Source: an uncultured Candidatus Saccharibacteria bacterium (GTDB lineage Bacteria > Patescibacteriota > Minisyncoccia > Phycocordibacterales > UBA918). Taken from it: a DNA stretch of 64,000 nt. Shown here in pieces: positions 4,847 to 61,903 of this stretch (position 1 is the stretch's first letter; every line of letters begins with the position of its first letter). A model generated the notes under the pieces. That model was not told the DNA's origin. It searched no databases and saw only the letters and a program-made list of their open reading frames with translations. The stretch lies in the NCBI GenBank assembly GCA_964570795.1, contig CAZMYZ010000001.1:42722-106721 (forward strand). The letters are read 5' to 3'. The position numbers and the translations under genes are program-made.

Positions 4847-5552
4847 TATTGAAACGGTCGGTGAGTCGTGGGATACCCTCGACTCCACGACACAAGAAGT
4901 GCTCACCCGCTGGATAGGGCGTACAAGTAAGGACGAACATGAACATGCAGCACTTTTAAAAGATGTGCAAGATGGACTCGGTTTTTCTCCCCTTACCGGT
5001 GAAGTGGTGGCTATTGGGCTCTATGATCTCGAGCGAAGGCAGGGTGTGGTGTATTACCAAGGAGCGGGTGAGATGGATTCTGAAGAAGGAGATTTTATAC
5101 TTAAGTCGCGCAGTGAAAAGGAGATGCTTCAAGATTTTTGGGATGGAGCACAGTCGTATGATACGTTTGTCACTTTTAATGGACGTTGTTTTGACGTACC
5201 TTTTCTCAATCTCCGTTCAGCGATTCAAGGAATTTGTCCAACACAGGATTTAATGGACGGGCGGTATCTCTATCAACAAAAACAAACGCGGCACGTCGAC
5301 CTACAAGACCAAATGACTTTTTATGGTGCGATGCAGCGGCGACCCTCACTTCATCTTTTTTGCCGAGCATTTGGCATAGAGAGTCCAAAGGCGGAGGGAG
5401 TGGCAGGGGATGATGTCGCAGAACTTTTTCGTATGAAAAAGTTCTGCGACATCGCCCGCTACAACGCCCGCGACGTCATCGCCACCACTGCACTCTACAA
5501 AAAGTGGCTTGAATATCTCGCACCTCATAGTTTTCGTAACACTCTTGAGTAG
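4827..5552 (+). CDS. RNase H-like 3'-5' exonuclease related to the PolB exonuclease domain (DNA_pol_B_exo2-like)
   Basis: 241 aa with N-terminal LIFDIETVG acidic motif and downstream FLNL/YNARD motifs typical of DnaQ/PolB-exo-like predicted exonucleases. Confidence 0.55.
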   Translation: MATLIFDIETVGESWDTLDSTTQEVLTRWIGRTSKDEHEHAALLKDVQDGLGFSPLTGEVVAIGLYDLERRQGVVYYQGAGEMDSEEGDFILKSRSEKEMLQDFWDGAQSYDTFVTFNGRCFDVPFLNLRSAIQGICPTQDLMDGRYLYQQKQTRHVDLQDQMTFYGAMQRRPSLHLFCRAFGIESPKAEGVAGDDVAELFRMKKFCDIARYNARDVIATTALYKKWLEYLAPHSFRNTLE

Positions 5553-12239: not shown

Positions 12240-13217
12240 ATGCAGGGTATGGTTGCAACGATAGATACGGTATATGCGTGGATGATGCGTCTTAGTCTCC
12301 GTGTGGTGAATAGTGTGCTCGAAACATACGCTCCGCGTGAGCGTGCAGCAAAACGTTATGACTCTGTTTTGAGTGATGCTACCACCATGCATGAGAAGGT
12401 GACGTCATCGTTTAAGACCATGAAAGATGTACTTGGTGCATATCCAAAAAAAATACTCGCTGAAAGGGTAACGATGACTGCGGCACCAGTGGACTCTCCG
12501 GTAGTTACTGCACTTAAAAGAGCAGTAGCGCGTGTGGAAGCACCTTCGCTAGATGATGGGGTGCGTATTCAAAAGAATACGGTGATGTATGCAAATAGTG
12601 TACGTGTGCCGGTATTTAAAAACCCGACGATTGAGTTTGATGGACAAATTGGAGAGGTGCCCTTTGGTGATATGGTGATCGTCCTTGAGCCGCGTGGACG
12701 TTTTTATCGCATCATGTGGAATACGATTGAGGGGTGGGTATTGAAAGAGGATATCGCTGACAGAGCACTCCGTGTGTATCCTGTTTTCATTATCGGTGAG
12801 GAAAACGGAGTGGATCATCCCAATACCGCACATGTACGCACTATCCTCGGTGATATTTTTGGTCTTGGTCGCTCTGAGTTTGCACTCCAAGCAGGAGAGT
12901 ACGTGCTGTATCGACTCTGGCGAAAGGGGATCCGTATTGTATGGCCAGAAATTCGCCCCCGTGTGCCGGGACTTTGGCATAGCATATTGCGCGGCTCGCG
13001 ACAGATTCATATTGGCGTGATGCCCAAAGTGGGTGCAGTTATGGAATATATGCTTTCTCCTGAAATGGGTCATGTGGCGTATGTGGAGGCAGTCTTTCCC
13101 GACCACACCATTACCATCTCCGAGGCCAATTTCCCTGATACCGGTATCTATAATGAACGTGTACTCACCAAGGAAGAATGGAAAGAATTGCATCCTGTTT
13201 TTATGACAGTGTCATAA
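12240..13217 (+). CDS. SH3b-domain protein with CHAP/NlpC-like C-terminal domain (putative cell-wall hydrolase; catalytic Cys not evident)
   Basis: 325 aa; central SH3b-like segment (VPVFKNPTIEFDGQIGEVPFGDMVIVLEPRGRFYRIMWNTIEGWVLKEDI) and a C-terminal GHVAYVEAV...ITISEANF resembling the CHAP His region. Confidence 0.4.
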   Translation: MQGMVATIDTVYAWMMRLSLRVVNSVLETYAPRERAAKRYDSVLSDATTMHEKVTSSFKTMKDVLGAYPKKILAERVTMTAAPVDSPVVTALKRAVARVEAPSLDDGVRIQKNTVMYANSVRVPVFKNPTIEFDGQIGEVPFGDMVIVLEPRGRFYRIMWNTIEGWVLKEDIADRALRVYPVFIIGEENGVDHPNTAHVRTILGDIFGLGRSEFALQAGEYVLYRLWRKGIRIVWPEIRPRVPGLWHSILRGSRQIHIGVMPKVGAVMEYMLSPEMGHVAYVEAVFPDHTITISEANFPDTGIYNERVLTKEEWKELHPVFMTVS

Positions 13218-13259
13218 AAACAGGATGCGTTCCGTGTTAATTTTGATACACTAACATAC

Positions 13260-27022: not shown

Positions 27023-27088
27023 CCAGTGCCTTTCTCTTTTTAAAACCCAGACCTAAACCCAACCGTTTTAAAAAGAGAAAGGCACTGG
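27023..27088 (+). promoter_or_regulatory. 24-bp perfect inverted repeat (long hairpin) immediately upstream of the prmC RBS
   Basis: CCAGTGCCTTTCTCTTTTTAAAAC-(18 nt loop)-GTTTTAAAAAGAGAAAGGCACTGG ending 8 nt before GGAG-ATG of prmC; a second hairpin at 26934-26965 lies just after the htpX stop. Confidence 0.5.
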
Positions 27089-35777: not shown

Positions 35778-35922
35778 TGGAGGCGGAGGGATTCGAACAT
35801 TACATGTTCAGTACCCGTTCAGGATAGTTTTGTTCGCCTTAAGGCTCCAAAACTATCTCTGAATGGCTTCGAATCCTGAACAGTCTCCCAGACTGTTCAT
35901 CTCCGCTTTCGCGGTGCTCAAG
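35778..35922 (-). mobile_element. ~145-bp tRNA-3'-end-associated insertion: 20-bp imperfect tRNA-Ser 3' copy plus 124-bp element with GAACATTACATGTTC palindrome
   Basis: 35778-35798 TGGAGGCGGAGGGATTCGAAC is an 80% copy of the tRNA-Ser 3' end at 35923-35943; the intervening 124 bp starts ATTACATGTTCAGTACCCGTTCAGG and resembles the element at 54358-54484; the minus-strand RNA would fold tRNA-like but is not a canonical tRNA. Confidence 0.45.
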
Positions 35923-36007: not shown

Positions 36008-36303
36008 GTATGTTATTTGATTATATCTCCTATGAGTGCAAACCTTCTAGTTTTCGTCCTATCATTCTTTGAATGCCTAACAGACGCTGTACACCTTATG
36101 AAGCGCACTATCGTCCTACAGACGCTGTTCATGTTGTATGATAGTTTCTTCCGTTGGTCGAAACTACCAACAACCTCTTGAGGAAGTCTCCCAGACTTCC
36201 TCACACTATGCGACGCCTCCGTGTAAGGTCCTATCTTACAAGATTTTTTTGTATCTATCTAGCATTTGTGGGAAAAATAGAAAGGCGGTATCGTAGTAGT
36301 ACT

Positions 36304-38407: not shown

Positions 38408-38431
38408 TATAAATGTTGTATAATTTGTAAG

Positions 38432-38745
38432 CGTTTGTGATCGCCCTATACGCTTAGGCATATGGGGAGGAAAGTCCGAACACACACCAGGGAAATCCTG
38501 GAAGGGTAGCGGGTAACGCCCGTCGTGGGTGACCATAGCGTTGCGAACAGAAACGACCCGGTTAAGTCCGGCTGAAACGGCTAAATACGTACTTGTGTGC
38601 AAGGCCGTGTCCAGTGAAATAGAGTTGCTTTGCAACTCTTAGTGTTCCGCACATTTCACCAGGAAGTGCCGCATGAGCGCATTGGTAACAATGCGCCTAG
38701 GTAAATGATCACACTGGTTTTCCAGACAGAATTCGGCTTATAGAC
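38432..38745 (+). ncRNA. rnpB: RNase P RNA (reduced bacterial-type)
   Basis: GGAGGAAAGTCCGAACAC (P4 5' strand), GGTAACGCCCG, CTGAAACGG and the 3' ACAGAATTCGGCTTAT (P4 3' strand; consensus ACAGAACCCGGCTTA); 5'/3' ends pair (GCGTTTGT/ACAAAC); about 315 nt. Confidence 0.75.
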
Positions 38746-38772
38746 GTACAAACAGACGCCCCTTCAAGGGGC
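38743..38772 (+). terminator. rho-independent terminator after rnpB
   Basis: ACAGACGCCCC-TTCAA-GGGGCGTCTGT-TTGT. Confidence 0.6.
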
Positions 38773-38778
38773 GTCTGT

Positions 38779-41328
38779 TTGTATGTTAGAATTATCACTA
38801 TTGATAAGAGAAGATTAATCGAGGTTAACGTATTACGTATTTATATGCCCGAAGAACAAGTTCGCCAGAATGATCCTATTGCTGCTGCATTGTCGCGATT
38901 TGCACAAAATGTCCTTGTAGTAATATTTGGATTGCTACCACTCTTTTTTATTCCATCAGTCACTGCACCATTTGAGTATACAAAAGTCTTTTTGGTGGTT
39001 GCTGGACTTCTTGTTGCGCTCGTACTATATAGTCTCTCAGTACTGCGTTCGGGTGTGGTCTCTGTGGGGGTATCTTACACACTTCTCGCGCTATGGGGAG
39101 TAGTAGGTATGTCTTTTGCATCATCGCTACTTTCAGGTGACTTCAAAGATTCACTGGTAGGTGATTTGTTCAGTATTCACTCGACGGTATTCGTCGCGAT
39201 ACTCGCGCTTATTCCTACGGTGTGGGTGCTTTTGAAATCAAATAAAGCATCAGTGATGCGTATGTATGTGCTCTTTGCGGTAAGTACACTTGTGCTCGTA
39301 ATCTTCCATGTATTGCGTCTTATCTTTGGAGCAGAGTTTCTTTCGTTTGGTATTTTCACAAGTAACGTGTCGACACCAGTAGGGAGTTGGAATGATCTCG
39401 CGTTGTTCCTCGGTCTCACGATTATCCTTTCTCTTGTTGCGCTTGAGCAACTCAATCTCACCCGTGCAGGGCAATTGCTTTTTGCAGGAGTTACCCTCGT
39501 GTCGCTCTTTATGCTTGGGGTCATCAACTTCTTTATTGTATGGCTCATCCTTGGTCTTACAAGTTTAGTAATGGTGGTCTATTCCCTTGGGAAAGAACGC
39601 TTTACGGGCAGCCAACTCTCATTCACTCCTTCGGTGCGTACATTCAATAGTACTGCACTCGCCACCACACTCATTGTGTTTGGTGCTTCAGCACTCTTTG
39701 TGGTTGGTGGAGCAACACTTGGCGGCATGATCGCAAAGCATACGGGAGTTTCCTATGTGGAGGTGCGCCCTTCGTTCGAATCCACAGCAAATATCGCACG
39801 AAGTGTGTATAGCGAAAATGCGTTTCTCGGTATCGGCGCAAATAAATTTACTGATGCATGGCGTCTCTACAAAGACAATGCTATCAACATGACCCCATTC
39901 TGGAATACTGAGTTTAATGCAGGTAATGGTTACCTTACTACCTTCTTTGTGACGACCGGTGTTCTTGGAGGTGTTGCATGGATTATATTCTTTGGTGTCT
40001 ATATGGTGACTGGTGTCCGCAGACTGCTTGGTGCTGCAGAGGGGGATAGACTTTGGTATTTCATTGGCGTTTCCTCGTTTGTGAGTGCACTCTATATCTG
40101 GGGAATGTCGATAGTCTATGTGCCGGGGGTGGTCATCCTTCTTCTTGGTGCATTGTGCACAGGTGTTTCACTCACTGCCTTTTCGGTGCTTGATGCCGCG
40201 CATCCACGTTTGATTTCTGTGGGTACCAACCGACGTTCAGGCTTTATTCTCACGATGGTAGTGATTACTCTTATTATTGGTTCGGTGAGTGTGCTCTATG
40301 TTGCAGGACGACACTATTCATCGGTCTATACCTTTAATGAAAGTGTCCGTGCAATGCAAGAAGGAAAAAGTATTGATGAACTCGAACAAAAAGTGGAAAG
40401 CGCTTACAAACTTTCTTCGAGTGATATATTTGCGCGTCGTATTGCTGAATATCAACTTGCTCGTATGAGTGCATTGGTTGCGCTCAAGGAGCCTACTGAT
40501 GAAGATAGAGCACAATTTGAACGTGTGAGTATTATGGGTATCAACGCCGCTCAGCAGGCAGTACTTATGGATAGCCAGGAACCGACAAATTGGTCAGTAC
40601 TTGCAGGAATGTACAGTGTACTGGCGACAGTGGGGATCGAAGGCGCACAAGACCGCGCTCTTGAAGCTCTCCAGAAATCGCGTGCACTCAATCCAAAGAA
40701 TCCACTCCCATACCTTGAGTCAGCATTGGTAGAGGGACGTGCAGGGCGCACAGACCTTTCACGTGAGTACATCAATCAAGCAATTGCACTGAAGCCTAAC
40801 TACACCGAAGCATTTTATTTTCTTTCGCAACTTGAAATAGCAACAGGAAATGTAGAGGGCGCTGTTAAATCAACACAGTCTATTATTACGCTTGAGCCGA
40901 ATAATCCAGCACGGTACTACCAACTTGGTGTGCTTGAAAGTTCTCGCAATAATCTTGATGGTGCAATAGTTGCCTTTGAACAAGCAATAAAACTTGATAC
41001 CAACTACGCAAATGCACGCTACCTCCTCGCCATTGCGTATGACGCAAAGGGTCGTGGTGCAGATGCAAAGGCACAACTCGAAGCAGTGCTTGCACTCAAT
41101 CCTGGTAATACTGAAGTGACCGCACTCATCGATATTCTTTCGAAGGATGGTTCACTCGCACGTCTCCGTGAATCAGCAACGCAAACAACACAGATAGTGA
41201 ACGAGGCGACACCGGTAACCGATGAAAATGGTACAGTAAGTACCACACAGGCGGGTGAGACTGATTTGGTAACACCGGTGAACACCGCACCAAAGATAGA
41301 AGAAGAAACACCCGAAGCAGCACAATAA
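38779..41328 (+). CDS. O-antigen ligase/Wzy-like polytopic membrane protein with C-terminal TPR domain
   Basis: About 12-14 N-terminal TM helices and a C-terminal run of TPR repeats (ALKPNYTEAFYFLSQLEIATGNVEGA, LEPNNPARYYQLGVLE, LDTNYANARYLLAIAYDAKG); the stop abuts the murJ ATG; the true start may be 38845. Confidence 0.55.
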   Translation: MYVRIITIDKRRLIEVNVLRIYMPEEQVRQNDPIAAALSRFAQNVLVVIFGLLPLFFIPSVTAPFEYTKVFLVVAGLLVALVLYSLSVLRSGVVSVGVSYTLLALWGVVGMSFASSLLSGDFKDSLVGDLFSIHSTVFVAILALIPTVWVLLKSNKASVMRMYVLFAVSTLVLVIFHVLRLIFGAEFLSFGIFTSNVSTPVGSWNDLALFLGLTIILSLVALEQLNLTRAGQLLFAGVTLVSLFMLGVINFFIVWLILGLTSLVMVVYSLGKERFTGSQLSFTPSVRTFNSTALATTLIVFGASALFVVGGATLGGMIAKHTGVSYVEVRPSFESTANIARSVYSENAFLGIGANKFTDAWRLYKDNAINMTPFWNTEFNAGNGYLTTFFVTTGVLGGVAWIIFFGVYMVTGVRRLLGAAEGDRLWYFIGVSSFVSALYIWGMSIVYVPGVVILLLGALCTGVSLTAFSVLDAAHPRLISVGTNRRSGFILTMVVITLIIGSVSVLYVAGRHYSSVYTFNESVRAMQEGKSIDELEQKVESAYKLSSSDIFARRIAEYQLARMSALVALKEPTDEDRAQFERVSIMGINAAQQAVLMDSQEPTNWSVLAGMYSVLATVGIEGAQDRALEALQKSRALNPKNPLPYLESALVEGRAGRTDLSREYINQAIALKPNYTEAFYFLSQLEIATGNVEGAVKSTQSIITLEPNNPARYYQLGVLESSRNNLDGAIVAFEQAIKLDTNYANARYLLAIAYDAKGRGADAKAQLEAVLALNPGNTEVTALIDILSKDGSLARLRESATQTTQIVNEATPVTDENGTVSTTQAGETDLVTPVNTAPKIEEETPEAAQ

Positions 41329-45932: not shown

Positions 45933-46241
45933 ATGCTGTATATGAATGAAAAGGAAAATGACACACATAGAGAAATACTTGTACTTCTCAAGGAGAATTC
46001 TCGGTTAGTAAAAGAAAATAACGAGATGCTCCATAAGATGTATCAGTATGACATGATTACTTTTTGGCTCCGCATTGTGTGGTATGCAGCACTCATTGGA
46101 TTGCCATTTGCAGTGTACTTCTATTTCCTCGAACCCTATTTTGATGCGTTTGGTTCAAACTATGAACTTTTTAGGCAGGGAATGGCAGAAATACCAGGAC
46201 TTAAAGGCCTTGAAACACTCATGCCTTCCATAGGTAATTAG
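45933..46241 (+). CDS. hypothetical small membrane protein
   Basis: 102 aa with one central TM helix. Confidence 0.35.
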   Translation: MLYMNEKENDTHREILVLLKENSRLVKENNEMLHKMYQYDMITFWLRIVWYAALIGLPFAVYFYFLEPYFDAFGSNYELFRQGMAEIPGLKGLETLMPSIGN

Positions 46242-46350
46242 TGCGTGTTGTAGCCTTTATAGCCAAATCCCCACACTGTACTGATTTATAAAATATGCTA
46301 CTATCAGTGGGCAGATTTTCTGAGAGTTAAGGAAGCTCTTAGTATTTCTG

Positions 46351-46509
46351 CATTCGCTAAAGCAAGAGAAATCTTTCCGCAGCGGCATTCGGATGAAATG
46401 TATACAAGCATCCACTTCGATCCTCATTTGCTGAGGTAAGAGGAATCTTTCCGCAGCATCATTCGAAACACAAATGCAAAAGTGAACTTTTGCGCTTGGT
46501 TTCTCATTC
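46351..46509 (+). repeat. two tandem degenerate copies (~77-bp period) of the tRNA-Phe 5' end/leader
   Basis: GCATTCGCTAAAGCAAGAGAAATCTTTCCGCAGCGGCATTCGG (46351) and CTCATTTGCTGAGGTAAGAGGAATCTTTCCGCAGCATCATTCGAAAC (46424), compared with the real tRNA start CTCATTCGCTGAGGTAGCTCAG (46503). Confidence 0.5.
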
Positions 46510-46582
46510 GCTGAGGTAGCTCAGTTGGTAGAGCATTTGTCTGAAGAACAAAGGGTCGGCGGTTCGAGCCCGCCCCTCAGCA
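46510..46582 (+). tRNA. tRNA-Phe (anticodon GAA)
   Basis: Acceptor GCTGAGG/CCTCAGC, D arm TAGCTCAGTTGGTAGAGCA, anticodon loop CTGAAGA, T arm GGCGG-TTCGAGC-CCGCC. Confidence 0.9.
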
Positions 46583-46640
46583 CACTGTACACAGAAAGCC
46601 CCGAAAGGGGTCTTTTCTGTGTACAGTGTGCTGAGGGAGC
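46575..46640 (+). terminator. long nested hairpin embedding the tRNA-Phe 3' acceptor end
   Basis: CCTCAGCACACTGTACACAGAAA-GCCCC-GAAA-GGGGT-C-TTTCTGTGTACAGTGTGCTGAGG, a 23-bp outer stem whose 5' arm starts inside the tRNA acceptor 3' strand. Confidence 0.5.
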
Positions 46641-47088
46641 ACGATACATAGGCATCGTGCGTGCGGGCTGAAATAGTTTGGGAAACTATTTCAGGAGGTT
46701 GTCGATATTTTGACGTAAGGAAAAATATCATACAACCTGAACTGAAGCAGTAGGCTTCGAAAGGCGGAATGATGTTGCTTTGCAACGAATGAGCCAGGGC
46801 AGGAGGCACTTAGTATTTTGTGAGGTAACGAAACAAAATACTTAGTGACCTGCGCCGAGCCTGCCACTCACTACCACGCTTCTACCAAATTCTATTTAGC
46901 AACTTGATGCCAGTATACAGAAACACCACCCAATAAAGGGTGGTGTTTCTTGTTCCCATAGGGCTGACCTATGTAATCAGAGTGTCAGCGAATTGCTGGC
47001 GGACGCCGTGCCCTCCTCTCATTCGTCAGCGAACAGATTGTAAGTCATCAAAAAAATAGGCTCCAAAGCGGAGCCTATCATAGAGCGT

Positions 47089-47337
47089 TTAGTCCTCGGC
47101 CATCCCTGCAATTGCTTGCTGTTGGCGCTTTTCCAGTTCCTTTCCTTCCTTGGTGACATAGGTGAGCCCTTGCAGGACTCCATTATGGAAGTGGACTTCC
47201 AGATAGTCATCAGAACCATCCAGATTGAAAAACATGTGTCCGTCTACACCTGAGCCAGTCTGTTTGGTTTGGGATACAGCATCGAATGCAGCGAGGATCC
47301 GTATCCTTGCATCAGCAAAAAGTTGTTCATTAGCCAT
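47089..47337 (-). CDS. hypothetical protein
   Basis: Start at MANEQLF with a strong SD (AAAGGAGATAGCC) and a terminator hairpin (ATAGGCTCC-AAAGC-GGAGCCTAT) downstream. Confidence 0.5.
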   Translation of the reverse strand: MANEQLFADARIRILAAFDAVSQTKQTGSGVDGHMFFNLDGSDDYLEVHFHNGVLQGLTYVTKEGKELEKRQQQAIAGMAED

Positions 47338-49477: not shown

Positions 49478-49625
49478 AGGGCTCAGAAAATATAGTTCTT
49501 ACAGAACCTGTCCAATCATTGGGTCTTTTGTCTCATTTCACCTGCCTGCCGGCAGGTTCACAAAAGCCCTCAATGAGTCTTGCGAAGTGATATTAAATCA
49601 CTTCTCACACTAACGCTCTTTATTT
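49478..49625 (-). repeat. ~130-bp structured repeat, copy A (inverted relative to copy B at 61698-61830)
   Basis: The reverse complement aligns with 61698-61830 (GAGCGT(T/C)AG(T/C)GTGAGAAGTGA...TCACTTCGCAAGACTCATTGAGG...CAAAAGACCCAATGA...TGGACAG); the core hairpin shows compensatory changes (GAAGTGAT/ATCACTTC vs GAAGTGAC/GTCACTTC); copy A also carries a CCTGCCGGCAGG palindromic insertion and an adjacent 17-bp-stem hairpin at 49443-49480. Confidence 0.55.
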
Positions 49626-54039: not shown

Positions 54040-54337
54040 GAAATTTCTACGCTGTGGCTCGCATCAGGGTCCGGAAGCAAAGCCTTTTGCTTGGTGGTGT
54101 CAGGTTACTAATTCGCTGCTCCAATAAACTGTTCGTGGTCACGAATCGCTAACTATATTTCTTCGCTACGCTCGAAATCCAGTAAGCGTTCTCGACCCCC
54201 GCCTCGCGGTTTTTCTTTCTGAGAAGAAAGAAAAACATCGCTGTGGCTCGCACTGAGGTACGCAGGCAAAGCAGTTTGCCTGCTAAACCAAAAAACAATC
54301 ATTCCTAAGAATGATTGTTTTTTGGTTTACCTCAGTG
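54040..54337. repeat. tRNA-trailer repeat region: ~85-bp dispersed repeat plus two-hairpin module (copy 1 of 2)
   Basis: 54118-54210 (GTGGTCACGAATCGCTAAC...TTCTCGACCCCCGCCTCGCGG) is homologous to 60845-60925; 54251-54337 is CACTGAGGTA-[GCAGGCAAA-GCAG-TTTGCCTGC]-[TAAACCAAAAAACAATCATTC-CTAAGA-GAATGATTGTTTTTTGGTTTA]-TACCTCAGTG; CGCTGTGGCTCGCA occurs twice. Confidence 0.5.
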
Positions 54338-54485
54338 CGCGATACAGGACTTGAACATTACATGTTCCGTTCAGGTTGTATGACGATTTCTTCCGTTGGT
54401 CGAAATCGTCGACAACCTCTTCAAGTCCAGGGCGACTGTTTACTAAAAAAAGCCAGACACAAGGCCTGACTATTTTTAGTAAAAG
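54335..54485 (-). mobile_element. ~150-bp insertion at the tRNA-Val 3' end: 23-bp perfect direct repeat of the tRNA 3' end flanking a 127-bp element
   Basis: GTGCGCGATACAGGACTTGAAC occurs at 54335-54357 and again as the real tRNA-Val 3' end at 54485-54507; the intervening 127 bp starts ATTACATGTTCCGTTCAGG, resembles the tRNA-Ser(GGA) element and holds a long bulged hairpin (GACGATTTC...GAAATCGTC). Confidence 0.5.
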
Positions 54486-54558
54486 TGCGCGATACAGGAC
54501 TTGAACCTGTGACCCCCACAATGTCAATGTGATGCTCTACCAACTGAGCTAACCGCGC
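54486..54558 (-). tRNA. tRNA-Val (anticodon GAC)
   Basis: Acceptor GCGCGGT/ATCGCGC, D arm TAGCTCAGTTGGTAGAGCA, anticodon arm TCACA-TTGACAT-TGTGG, T arm ACAGG-TTCAAGT-CCTGT; no CCA encoded. Confidence 0.85.
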
Positions 54559-60834: not shown

Positions 60835-61172
60835 ATTTGTGGTCACGAGTTACTAACAATAATGAGTCGCTCCGCTCTCATTCTGGTAAGTACTCTCGAC
60901 CCCGCCTCGACTGTTGCAAAACAACATGTCTTCGTCTGTCATGATGGCATGCAAGCAAAGCAGGATGCTCTGTGGTCACAAGTTGCTAAGTAGAACTTGT
61001 ACTTTGTACAAATTCATACTAAGCACTTTTCGACCTCGGCTCGCGGTTCGTCGCCCTGTGAAGGGGCGACTCACAACGCTCCGCCCTCACAGCAGACCCG
61101 CAAGCAAAATTGTTTGCTTGCTAATACAAAAAACACCATGTTGTAACATGGTGTTTTTTGTATTGTCTGCTG
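60835..61172. repeat. tRNA-trailer repeat region (copy 2): tandem degenerate ~85-bp repeats plus two-hairpin terminator module abutting tRNA-Glu
   Basis: 60845-60925 (GTGGTCACGAGTTACTAAC...CTCTCGACCCCGCCTCGAC), a second partial copy 60965-61070 (GTGGTCACAAGTTGCTAAG...CGACCTCGGCTCGCGGTT); 61095-61172 is CACAGCAGAC-[GCAAGCAAA-ATT-GTTTGCTTGC]-[ACAAAAAACACCATGTT-GTAA-CATGGTGTTTTTTGT]-GTCTGCTGTG. Confidence 0.5.
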
Positions 61173-61244
61173 TGACCCCACGGAGAATCGAACTCCGATT
61201 TCCAGGATGAAAACCTGATGTCCTAACCGTTAGACGATGGGGCC
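61173..61244 (-). tRNA. tRNA-Glu (anticodon UUC)
   Basis: Acceptor GGCCCCA/TGGGGTC, D arm TCGTCTAACGGTTAGGACA, anticodon arm TCAGG-TTTTCAT-CCTGG, T arm CGGAG-TTCGATT-CTCCG; no CCA. Confidence 0.85.
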
Positions 61245-61462
61245 GGACGAAATTCTTTAATTTTGTCCGGCCCCATCGTCGATGACGAGGGGTGAGAAAG
61301 TCTGGGAGACTTTCGCAAGACCTTGCCTGATATTTTTTGAGGCAAAAAGCCGAAGAAAAATATCGACAAGGTGTACAGTCCCTGTAAGGGACAATATACT
61401 CCGAACCTCGCTATACTACCGAAAAATCAAAAAAAATGCTAGTTTTATAATTCATACACTCT

Positions 61463-61549
61463 GGAAGAGTGGCTGAGAGGTTGAAGGCACATGTCTCGAA
61501 AACATGCATGGGGGAAACCCCATCGGGGGTTCAAATCCCCCCTCTTCCG
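61463..61549 (+). tRNA. tRNA-Ser (anticodon CGA)
   Basis: Acceptor GGAAGAG/CTCTTCC, anticodon arm CATGT-CTCGAAA-ACATG, long variable arm, T arm GGGGG-TTCAAAT-CCCCC. Confidence 0.85.
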
Positions 61550-61556
61550 CTCGTAG

Positions 61557-61586
61557 AAAATACCGCCATTACGGCGGTTATTTTCT
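61557..61586 (+). terminator. rho-independent terminator after tRNA-Ser
   Basis: AAAATACCGCC-ATTAC-GGCGGTTATTTTC. Confidence 0.6.
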
Positions 61587-61697
61587 TGAGCGGAAGAGGA
61601 ACAAAGCACCTGCGTGCTTTGTGTGGGGATTTGAAAATGCAAAGTATATTTTCTGCTTTCATAATGCAGAAAATACTTTGCATCGGGCAGGTAATTC

Positions 61698-61830
61698 TTA
61701 TGAGCGTCAGCGTGAGAAGTGACTTGATGTCACTTCGCAAGACTCATTGAGGACTTTTGTGAATGAAATGAAACAAAAGACCCAATGAGTGGACAGTTCC
61801 TGTAAGGAATTAGAATTGGACGCCGAATCC
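61698..61830 (+). repeat. ~130-bp structured repeat, copy B
   Basis: See copy A (49478-49625); contains hairpin GAAGTGAC-TTGAT-GTCACTTC and the conserved CAAAAGACCCAATGAGTGGACAG block; also a palindrome GCAAAGTATATTTTCTGC...GCAGAAAATACTTTGC just upstream (61637-61680). Confidence 0.55.
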
Positions 61831-61903
61831 ACCCCCCCAATAAATAATTTATCAAAAACGCATATTCTCAAATCCCCCTATCACCCCATGCTATGATATA
61901 CGC

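Follow-up and report, generated by a model that had tools for sequence, protein, structure and literature searches.

Intrinsic (Rho-independent) terminators that follow tRNA genes are often bidirectional, and several other kinds of folded or repeated DNA are known from the borders of genes. Repeats of the REP/BIME/REPIN and BOX/ERIC kinds are modular intergenic hairpins that often lie at the 3' ends of genes, where they overlap terminators; their arms evolve in concert and their copy number varies. Site-specific recombinases that integrate DNA into tRNA genes leave partial tRNA copies behind as att repeats, also in cis-mobilisable elements (CIME) and tycheposon remnants, and sublocation classes of such integration were reportedly distinguished by Williams in 2002. 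The attP site of the CTX phage, used with XerCD, and the attC sites of integrons are attachment sites folded from a single strand, and at the RNA level tRNA-like processing signals or spacers are known as mascRNA/MALAT1, organellar tRNA punctuation, the 3'ETS-leuZ sponge and YrlA. Here we analyze a locus from the Saccharibacteria, bacteria living on other bacteria, whose small genomes of about 1 Mb leave little DNA to spare. The stretch of DNA studied, in the following called the window, comprises 64,000 nucleotides (nt) from an uncultured Candidatus Saccharibacteria bacterium (GenBank assembly GCA_964570795.1, contig CAZMYZ010000001.1, positions 42,722 to 106,721 of the forward strand), and the subject is a strong hairpin immediately 3' of its tRNA-Phe(GAA) gene together with the repeats surrounding this gene, to which an earlier note on the same DNA had drawn attention.

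The strong hairpin is a terminator made longer by sequence that repeats the 3' end of the tRNA in inverted form. Its outer arm, consisting of GTGCTGAGGG, a small hairpin and GCGGGCT, is an inverted copy of the last 21 nt of the tRNA and the 5' boundary of a downstream element; judged from the sequence comparisons below, this arm is no random scar but the border of a conserved structured element with covariation. The repeats upstream of the gene are tandem leader modules, in which a copy of the tRNA 5' end is predicted to pair with a copy of the acceptor 3' strand into a minihelix. We read the feature as a whole as a terminator plus tRNA-anchored, insertion-derived, modular RNA-structured repeats, with the inverted-arm element and the upstream units belonging to one family, and we assign this reading a probability of roughly 0.55. 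The repeat family is so far confined to one Saccharibacteria clade, where it is found at the ends of tRNA genes and occasionally directly 3' of protein genes. Its closest known kinds are the REP/BIME-type mosaic repeats and the tRNA-targeted integrative elements, and it fails the defining tests of both. No description of modules that mimic tRNA ends was found in the published literature, and the family seemingly has not been described so far.

The tRNA-Phe(GAA) gene occupies positions 46510-46583 of the plus strand (ARAGORN; Rfam RF00005 tRNA, 72.7 bits), and according to both ARAGORN and Rfam the CCA end is absent from the encoded tRNA. An inverted repeat with arms at 46574-46597 and 46614-46637, each of 24 nt, 100% complementary and 16 nt apart, begins within the gene: the upstream arm opens with C64 of the T stem, takes in the acceptor 3' strand followed by A73 and C74, and closes with 14 nt of trailer. 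The near-perfect hairpin that the earlier note had reported is thus real, but it had been given a stem of 23 bp and a start in the acceptor 3' strand, where the arms in fact measure 24 nt and begin in the T stem. As seen from the inverted repeat and from folding, the composite hairpin (46574-46637, plus strand) consists of tRNA positions 64-74 with the trailer, the terminator, the reverse complement of the trailer, and the downstream arm. The 136 nt between 46510 and 46645 have a predicted folding energy of -75.4 kcal/mol (z = -8.9), which none of 200 shuffled sequences equalled, and in the predicted fold of this segment alone the acceptor stem is displaced by the hairpin.

At the center of the composite hairpin lies the sequence GCCCC GAAA GGGGT with the T tract CTTTTCTG (46598-46619, plus strand), which was terminator-like in a consensus scan. 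Its GC-rich stem-loop (46598-46611) is directly followed by the T tract CTTTTCTGTG, and a comparable hairpin with a T tract is present 3' of tRNA-Phe in every orthologue. The prediction that the inner hairpin is the intrinsic terminator of tRNA-Phe is supported by these findings, which bear out one of the three roles (processing site, terminator or recombination scar) proposed in the earlier note. The likeness to known intrinsic terminators includes the GC-rich stem-loop and T tract right after the tRNA, a lower stem made of an A tract and a T tract, and a conserved position. Unlike them, the stem is prolonged by 10 (+11) nt complementary to the tRNA 3' end, and since this prolongation lies 3' of the T tract it is not part of the termination hairpin. 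For the same reason the competing arm can meet the tRNA, and rival its acceptor stem, only in read-through transcripts; the competition between hairpin and acceptor stem that had been pointed out earlier is therefore seen in the fold but can matter only in such transcripts. An independent contig from another sample (L001; loci are numbered in this way throughout) is identical to the window over 46200-46724, hairpin included, bar a 74-nt deletion. The feature is consequently real and no assembly artefact, and the deletion in so similar a contig shows that the number of units varies between close strains.

A 31-nt stretch of the tRNA used as query gave 35 loci in species-representative genomes, all of them Patescibacteria, and a metagenome scan added 9 further loci. 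Among the 35, the loci with the acceptor stem GCTGAGG were deposited as Candidatus Saccharibacteria or under different Patescibacteria names chosen by their submitters. Most loci share the same upstream gene of 102 amino acids (aa), whose 3' part is 70-82% identical to the window at the DNA level, and they are therefore orthologous loci of different species. Of 18 distinct loci that have this same tRNA, 10 show pairing between the downstream arm and the tRNA 3' end over 21-23 nt, from the T loop to C74, and the trailer and terminator sequences of these ten are almost wholly different. Hairpins equivalent to the composite hairpin, with other trailers, were found in L007, L009, L017, L021, L025, L028, L041 and L047. 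Four further loci have partial pairing (GCAC/GTGC plus GAGCCC/GGGCTC), and five have the terminator only, some of whose stems still begin at GCAC (L042, L045).

In the window the inverted copy of the tRNA 3' end (46628-46669, plus strand) is split by a small hairpin. Its first part, IRLa (GTGCTGAGGG, 46628-46637, plus strand), pairs with tRNA positions 65-74 and is identical in 10 species despite the 70-82% identity of the neighbouring coding DNA. The small hairpin hpA (22 nt, 46639-46660, plus strand) has five pairs with compensatory changes and a conserved loop, AUAG or AUGG; in L025 and L041 it is absent and the inverted copy is uninterrupted. The second part, IRLb (GCGGGCT, 46663-46669, plus strand), pairs with T-stem 3' and T-loop positions and is shortened here by a cassette insertion (see below); in the comparison across loci it reads GCGGGCTCGAA, the partner of the T loop and of the T-stem 3' strand. 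IRLb is complementary to the local T-loop variant in 13 of 13 loci, and the four variants TTCGAGC, TTCAAGC, TTCGAAC and TTCGATC are tracked both by IRLb and by the direct copies described below. Where the distal direct copy has decayed (the window, L021, L028 and L047), IRLa is still perfect against the tRNA, and pairing with the tRNA end is thus itself maintained, either by selection or by concerted evolution. The suggestion of a recombination scar made in the earlier note was right in spirit and too weak, as the arm is invariant in 10 species, tracks the T-loop variants and bounds a covarying element.

This element is about 160-260 nt long among the loci and about 250 nt in the window (46628-46874), where a 95-nt cassette has been inserted. 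In L007, L009, L017 and L046 its distal part holds an exact direct copy (IRR) of the last 19 nt of the tRNA, CGAGCCCGCCCCTCAGCAC or the local variant, which lies 140-180 nt downstream, just behind ACCTGCGC; all copies seen agree with the T-loop variant of their locus. L007 has two exact direct copies and a decayed third, while the copy in the window (ACCTGCGCCGAGCCTGCCACTCACTAC, 46848-46874, plus strand) is decayed and differs at 4 of 17 positions. The predicted fold of the element comprises a closing helix P1, in which IRLa pairs with the acceptor part (GTGCTGAGGG/CCCTCAGCAC), a helix P2 between IRLb and the T part, the hairpins hpA, hpB and hpC, and a helix P3. Its 3' core (46757-46864, plus strand; nhmmer E = 3.9e-23) is made up of the G-box TCGAAAGGCGGA, hpB, GAGCC, P3 (GGGCAGG/CCTGCGCC) and hpC (CACTTAGTATTTTG..CAAAATACTTAGTG). 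The unit of L007 folds at -89.2 kcal/mol (z = -10.6). When five orthologues were compared by RNAalifold and pair counts, 17 of 53 element pairs showed compensatory changes and 95.5% of cells were paired, a result reached by none of 500 shuffles, and the covariation signal was lost when the partners were slid. Unpaired blocks, CGAAAGGCGGA, GAGCCAGGGCAGGAGG and ACCTGCGCC, are conserved as well. The same 3' core was found 3' of tRNA-Val in L039 and L044 and 3' of tRNA-Glu in the window (60847-60940, minus strand).

Two loci are informative about the ends of the element. The second unit of L017 has its own covarying ends, GGTGCAAGGG...CCCTTGCACC, which differ from the tRNA-Phe arm yet are mutually complementary (GGTGCAAGGGTTCG ... 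CGAACCCGCCCTTGCACC), so that the inverted ends belong to the unit. In L016, where tRNA-Phe has another acceptor stem, the unit ends in L016's own tRNA 3' end. A second terminator-like palindrome, detected by self-BLAST, closes the element in the window (46919-46950), and a terminator hairpin is likewise situated 3' of the direct copy in L009, L017 and L046. Beyond it, a candidate remnant of a further unit end (GAGTGTCAGCGAA..GGACGCCGTGCCCTCCTCTCATTCG, 46980-47025, plus strand) resembles, by eye only, TATGAGCGTCAGCGAATTACTAGCGGACGCCAAGCCCGCCCC of L025, L040 and L043 and the unit 3' of tRNA-Ser(cga) in the window.

In 11 of 14 downstream regions it is the tRNA-sense strand that gives the better fold, and the U-G wobbles of hpB would be A-C on the opposite strand; both observations modestly favor an RNA from the plus strand. 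A read-through RNA of the L007 tRNA with its unit has a predicted fold of -159.9 kcal/mol (z = -13.6), in which the proximal 3' end pairs with the arm and the distal copy completes the cloverleaf. Because the copies of the 3' end are identical, this topology and its alternative are interchangeable. The modules gave no Rfam match at the gathering score, the window matching only tRNAs and the RNase P RNA, and at relaxed thresholds (E <= 1-10, three flanking regions) there were only spurious matches to miRNA-type hairpins. Neither a T arm nor an elbow was seen in the modules by tRNA models, the real tRNA being the sole match of ARAGORN and RF00005 within 46200-47100. An acceptor-type closing helix with tRNA sequence, as expected of a tRNA mimic, is present both in P1 and in the minihelix GCTGAGG..CC(G/T)CAGC-A of the upstream units.

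The cassette inserted into the element of the window (46667-46760, plus strand; covariance model 95.6 bits, E = 4.9e-21) consists of three hairpins: hpX with the loop UGGGA (46668-46694, plus strand), the central two-tier hairpin M1, AGGUUGU-C-GAnnnUUU ... AAAnnnUC-AU-ACAACCU-GAAC (46696-46742, plus strand), and hpU, the pentaloop of which is usually UGUAA. The 95-nt cassette is present at this place in the window and in L028 and absent there from L007, L009, L017 and L021. Among ten distinct cassette copies 97% of cells are paired and nine pairs show double changes, and none of 500 shuffles was as good. With the covariance model seven copies were detected in the window, of which six adjoin tRNAs. 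In addition to the one described these are located at 35793-35890, 36109-36205 and 54351-54445 on the minus strand, at 61291-61394 and 61713-61812 on the plus strand, and at 49492-49607 on the minus strand, the last directly 3' of the stop codon of the leucyl-tRNA synthetase (LeuRS) gene. Among 20 cassette matches at E < 0.01, 17 lie at most 410 nt from a tRNA gene and most are co-oriented with it, and the model gave no cassette in the loci from members of the candidate phyla radiation (CPR) other than Saccharibacteria. In L044 a cassette (5134-5228, minus strand) was likewise observed directly 3' of the stop codon of an ABC-type gene. With the copies at the LeuRS and ABC-type genes the modules are not strictly tied to tRNAs, and cassettes at the ends of protein genes may be structures of the 3' untranslated region. 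The loops of the modules are rich in A(N)GGA (AAGGAA, GAGGAA and ACGGAA, e.g. at 46327-46335, 46441-46446 and 46711-46720) and the pentaloops UGUAA and UGGGA fit UGNRA; these could be candidate protein-binding or T-loop-like motifs.

Upstream of the tRNA gene, a promoter-like extended -10 element, TG-c-TACTAT (46296-46304, plus strand), is proposed for the tRNA-Phe unit. The motif AAAATATGnTACTATC is kept in all orthologous loci and lies 15-45 nt from tRNA-Phe in loci lacking upstream units; the consensus scan gave no match to the element. It is followed by a leader hairpin, GCAGA..CTGAGAG-loop(AAGGAAG)-CTCTTAG..TCTGC (46311-46351, plus strand), which scored as a terminator-like stem in the consensus scan and the stem of which covaries with L007 (CTGGGGG/CTCCCAG) and L028. 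This native leader hairpin directly abuts tRNA-Phe in L028 and L047, which have no upstream units, and abuts the displaced tRNA fragment in the window and L007. One 10-mer, CACACTGTAC, is found in identical form in the promoter region (46272-46281) and in the tRNA-Phe trailer (46581-46590); relatives keep CTGTACTGATT in the promoter region but differ in the trailer, so this recurrence is probably due to chance.

Between leader hairpin and tRNA, the window holds two units with spacings of 74 and 80 nt, each opening with the leader (CATTY) and the first 9-10 nt of the tRNA. The earlier note had described two partial copies of the leader and tRNA 5' end with a period of about 77 bp. They do align beyond chance and are kept in other species, but the spacing is unequal and the first copy is decayed. 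The evidence for the alignment is a 41-nt repeat (46351-46391 versus 46425-46465, 83% identity; self-BLAST E = 5e-4 for the upstream repeats) and a 24-nt repeat (46415-46438 versus 46495-46518, 83% identity). The 14-mer CATTCGCTGAGGTA is not significant by itself, since it has 7 matches where 4.8 are expected if up to 3 mismatches are allowed, and copy 1 is degenerate (11 of 14 positions); it is held to be real on account of the longer repeat and of orthologous units in L005, L007, L021, L041 and L044. Tandem Repeats Finder reported no array at the upstream units, which are too divergent for it.

Unit A (74 nt, 46356-46429, plus strand), recognized by two repeat families, is the decayed copy with the degenerate tRNA 5' end GCTAAAGCAAG. 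It has no stable fold (z = 0.2) and is orthologous to the single unit of L005, L021 and L044; in L001 the 74-nt deletion left one hybrid A/B unit. Unit B (80 nt, 46430-46509, plus strand; predicted fold -28.1 kcal/mol, z = -4.5) comprises the acceptor-stem minihelix GCTGAGG-T-AAGA-GGAA-TCTT-T-CCGCAGC-A (46430-46458, plus strand), a second hairpin (46465-46503) and the leader TCATTC. In the minihelix of 7 + 4 bp, the acceptor 5' strand of the tRNA pairs with a near copy of its 3' strand plus A73. It is kept in 9 units of 6 genomes, L005 and L041 have it with a fully matched acceptor stem (CCTCAGC), and its extension shows a compensatory change from AAGA/TCTT to AAGC/GCTT. The second hairpin covaries with unit A of L007 in its outer (GGAAT/ATTCC) and inner (GCAGGA/TCCTGC) pairs. 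The upstream units were also considered as decayed copies of whole tRNAs, and this was rejected as no convincing alignment exists outside the two acceptor strands.

Comparable arrangements are present at other tRNA genes in the window. The tRNA-Ser(cga) region (61541-61840) has an architecture like that of tRNA-Phe: a hairpin that takes in 12 nt of the tRNA 3' end (CCTCTTCCGCTC-terminator-GAGCGGAAGAGG) is followed by a small hairpin and then by the complement of its T loop, and the unit of about 250 nt ends in the tRNA-3'-like sequence CGAATCCACCCCCCCA, which does not match tRNA-Ser(cga). tRNA-Glu has a perfect 16-nt inverted copy of its own 5' end just upstream (61233-61280), followed by a cassette facing tRNA-Ser(cga). 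In L044, the spacer between tRNA-Glu and tRNA-Ser(cga) is plain and 73 nt long and a gene follows directly after tRNA-Ser(cga), whereas the window has units at both places. For tRNA-Ser(gga), 17 nt of the 5' end recur as a direct copy at a distance of 215 nt upstream (36206-36222, minus strand), with a cassette in between. For tRNA-Val, an exact 23-nt direct copy of the 3' end is found 150 nt downstream (54334-54356 versus 54484-54506, minus strand), again with a cassette in between and sharing its M1 hairpin. The context found directly 3' of tRNA-Val in L039 and L044 is found 3' of the distal copy in the window and L005, and the inserted DNA thus comprises the cassette as well as the proximal 3' end and the terminator belonging to it. 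A relation between the tRNA-Phe and tRNA-Val trailers had been proposed in the earlier note from the recurrence of GCTGAGGTA in CACTGAGGTA. This recurrence is a chance one, as it concerns the outer strand of a trailer hairpin that varies between loci, reading CACCGAGGCA...GTGCCTCGGTG in L005 and being different again in L039 and L044; the tRNA-Val gene nevertheless has a related module for other reasons, namely the shared M1 hairpin and the direct copy of its own 3' end.

At the 5' side, displaced tRNA fragments adjoin the native promoter and measure 10 nt for tRNA-Phe, 17 nt for tRNA-Ser, 24 nt for tRNA-Val (L035, L039, L044) and 35 nt for tRNA-Arg (L025/L040). After each displaced fragment come a cassette or unit, then a promoter-like segment rich in A/T, and then the tRNA in intact form. 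The number of units per locus varies from 0 to 3 among species. A 305-aa open reading frame (ORF) of the DKNYY family in L017 (5573-6580, minus strand) is situated between the tRNA-Phe gene with its two units and a 66-nt partial tRNA-Phe copy (positions 8-73), and it looks like a small island inserted at tRNA-Phe.

We propose that the modules entered by recombination inside the tRNA gene, which would have taken place in the T loop on the 3' side and in the D or anticodon region on the 5' side. With each module a new tRNA end would have arrived, accompanied on the 3' side by a terminator and on the 5' side by a promoter-like segment, so that the tRNA stays intact and the displaced end persists as a repeat; such repeats may then permit gain, loss and tandem arrays. 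In read-through transcripts the inverted arm would have two alternative partners, the tRNA 3' end and the terminal copy of the element itself, and the resulting long closing or processing helix would enclose the conserved hairpin modules, which may be kept by RNA-level selection on the tRNA-sense strand.

Several points weigh against this proposal. No recombinase, transposase or integrase was found next to any unit by Pfam scans of the ORFs near tRNAs and of the larger ORFs of the window, the inserts contain no ORF, and no viral or phage contig with the tRNA core or the cassette was detected. Units of 75-260 nt are too small for the double-stranded DNA circles of a classical integrase, and the only mobile-element enzyme of the window is a RAYT-like Y1 transposase (333-1019) with a palindrome of its own that is unrelated to the tRNA modules. 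The first downstream unit of tRNA-Phe is present in all syntenic relatives and may thus be old and vertically inherited rather than recently mobile. The covariation counts are based on 5-10 related sequences, transcription through a good terminator is assumed, and concerted evolution of the hairpin arms could result from DNA template switching instead of RNA selection.

The persistence of the first downstream unit in every syntenic orthologue, with its conserved unpaired blocks and covarying stems, would also suit a non-mobile, host-encoded RNA device, an alternative that we regard as unlikely. The copies of tRNA ends would then be processing stems of RNase III type and minihelices of RNase P/Z type, and both would serve to separate, trim or stabilise two parts of one transcript, the tRNA and a structured small RNA, for which the processing stalks and tRNA punctuation of rRNA operons and organelles offer an analogy. 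A host device would agree with the perfect IRLa in the four loci with a decayed distal copy (window, L021, L028, L047), with the read-through fold (z = -13.6), and with cassettes that are co-oriented with tRNAs and also follow directly after the LeuRS and ABC-type stop codons. It is harder to reconcile with a unit number (0-3) and content that vary by species, with the same modules at different tRNAs and on either side of them, with copies that are clearly decaying (unit A at z = 0.2, the direct copy of the window), and with a closing helix that pairs the discriminator and C74, lacks a T loop, is missed by tRNA models and would be a poor mimic for RNase P/Z. Also unlikely is a new kind of tRNA-anchored element, in which complementarity to the tRNA end, here an arm of 10 + 11 nt split by a hairpin and co-evolving with the T loop, guides the insertion of small hairpin elements into tRNA genes (perhaps through a hairpin-recognising Y1-type enzyme that acts on single strands), or whose units are giant RNAs closed by tRNA ends, which the tRNA-processing machinery excises and handles or which bind tRNA.

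A further alternative is a neutral by-product that has no function. Intrastrand template switching (quasipalindrome correction) would copy the tRNA arm downstream, the upstream units being decaying tandem duplications, and with such a process one would expect the more than 20 long near-perfect palindromes at gene ends of the window, arms that stay perfect while trailers diverge fast, the inverted copy that in L025 and L041 follows the terminator immediately and extends over 22-23 nt without a break, and the terminator stems still beginning at GCAC in the unit-free loci L042 and L045. We hold it to be decidedly unlikely, as it leaves unexplained hpA at the same junction in tRNA-Phe and tRNA-Ser(cga), the tracking of the T loop by IRLb across hpA, the direct 3' and 5' copies, the conserved unpaired blocks and the sharing of modules among tRNA loci. 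A folded single-stranded DNA attachment site that mimics a duplex target, at which a hairpin-recognising recombinase of the Xer/CTX, attC or HUH Y1/RAYT type inserts small single-stranded elements at tRNA ends, appears very unlikely. The order of site copy, short loop, inverted copy, body and second direct copy is indeed that of an integrated CTX-type element, the units arrayed in L007 each end in the same site, the units are too small for double-stranded circles, and the window has a conserved, palindrome-flanked Y1 (HUH) transposase that is widespread in Patescibacteria. No enzyme is linked to the units, however, the Y1 palindrome is unrelated and present only at its own flanks, the inverted arm of the second L017 unit matches its own distal copy and not the preceding site, there is no sign of circles or recent insertion, and the U-G wobbles favor RNA. 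Chance similarity or an assembly artefact, which the lack of significance of the 14-mer alone might suggest, is refuted by the independent contig with the same hairpin, by equivalents in at least 10 species and by shuffle z values from -8.9 to -13.6, and its probability is negligible. The insertion-derived repeats anchored at the tRNA ends thus remain our preferred reading.

Other candidate explanations were rejected. A guide RNA with a scaffold of TnpB/IscB type and a tRNA-matching guide has no such gene and no Rfam match, and the 'guide' is a duplicated gene end. The primer-binding site of a retroelement is contradicted by a complement that omits the CCA unless the trailer encodes it and is split by a hairpin, with no reverse transcriptase nearby. 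In an H/ACA-like or C/D-like guide the target would pair fully, leaving no unpaired junction nucleotides, and a hammerhead-like CUGAUGA in L016 has a core that is not conserved.

Compared with the described systems, the modules are like REP/BIME/REPIN repeats in being modular intergenic hairpins, and the window also has a RAYT-like gene with inverted palindromes. Unlike REP sequences, their arms copy the neighbouring tRNA ends, they have no genome-wide consensus and no GTAG head, and they are larger (95-260 nt) and multi-hairpin with the conserved loops UGUAA and UGGGA; the cassette is dispersed (7 copies in 64 kb) though a common conserved head is absent, and the RAYT-like gene is not flanked by dispersed repeats of the tRNA modules. 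With tRNA-integrated elements the units share direct repeats of the 3' end starting at the T loop, a rebuilt gene, tandem arrays and variable presence, and a direct tRNA repeat flanks the insert (19-nt copies, 23 nt for tRNA-Val, 5' copies of 10-35 nt). They differ from these elements by inserts of only 75-350 nt that encode no protein, by the lack of a nearby integrase, by 5' versions with a promoter-like segment, by an extra inverted core copy beside the rebuilt end, and by internal modules that are RNA-structured and covarying. The resemblance to CTX attP and attC is architectural only, with a target-mimicking imperfect palindrome at one junction and a site repeat at the other, and unlike these systems the element comes without recombinase, single-stranded replicon or cassette ORFs. 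As in MITEs (miniature transposable elements with inverted repeats), there are terminal inverted repeats, since IRLa and IRLb pair with the direct copy in L007, L009 and L017 (including its second unit); the duplicated tRNA segments measure 10-35 nt, a possible TGATAT repeat flanks only the second unit of L017, and no parent element was seen.

Similar to tRNA-like processing signals, the modules are non-coding RNA shaped as or adjoining an acceptor helix, with a minihelix that has the tRNA's own acceptor sequence and discriminator; unlike these signals, they have no T loop or elbow and they copy the specific neighbouring tRNA and its reverse complement. Group I introns have been reported in tRNAs of Patescibacteria (PMC13011429). 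They belong to the same phylum and are likewise extra structured RNA at tRNA genes, and the tRNA-Arg fragment of L025 ends at position 35, but the tRNAs studied here are uninterrupted and the modules lie outside the mature tRNA. No Intron_gpI match was found by Rfam in the window or the flanking regions.

Hairpin modules that are conserved and covary make up about 5% of the window, where they cluster at five of the six tRNA genes. Should they be functional RNAs, the expression or processing of tRNA genes in the CPR has a further layer that is not annotated. Should they be mobile, tiny protein-less elements would occupy essential single-copy tRNA genes without killing them, by carrying the end of the gene together with a terminator or promoter. 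In either case the modules break short-read assemblies, and partial tRNA copies can mislead annotation and the prediction of attachment sites. In other samples, short-read contigs of this species stop inside modules (at 46711-46713, 46797, 46863 and 61734-61739), and strain-level contigs for the unit-flanking genes are identical to the window and end at the repeats.

The Y1 (HUH) transposase mentioned above is a 228-aa protein like the REP-associated type (RAYT), encoded at 333-1019 on the minus strand (Pfam Y1_Tnp E = 2.3e-6; NCBIfam REP_Tyr_transpos E = 6.8e-10, below the family cut-off). The gene is flanked by inverted copies of the palindrome TGTTGGGTTT-NNN-AAACCCAACA at 306-330 and 1020-1056, which were found nowhere else in the window nor in 55 loci. 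The insert lies between two direct repeats of 61 nt (235-295 and 1046-1106, 88% identical) that both copy the 3' end of a gene of the ArsR family. In Patescibacteria the transposase family counts more than 3,400 relatives, those nearest among the matches listed being 57-67% identical, and a relative with an 88% identical Y1 protein has the gene at the same place without the 61-nt duplicate. A link between this transposase and the tRNA modules is possible but unsupported.

Elsewhere in the window, the RNA of RNase P (bacterial class A) was identified at 38424-38756 on the plus strand, with only 122.9 bits against a gathering score of 100. The long near-perfect palindromes at gene ends, more than 20 in number, measure 31-74 nt (e.g. 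5396-5469, 13190-13228, 27023-27088, 38744-38786 and 61123-61164), and it appears as if unusually long terminator stems are the rule in this genome.

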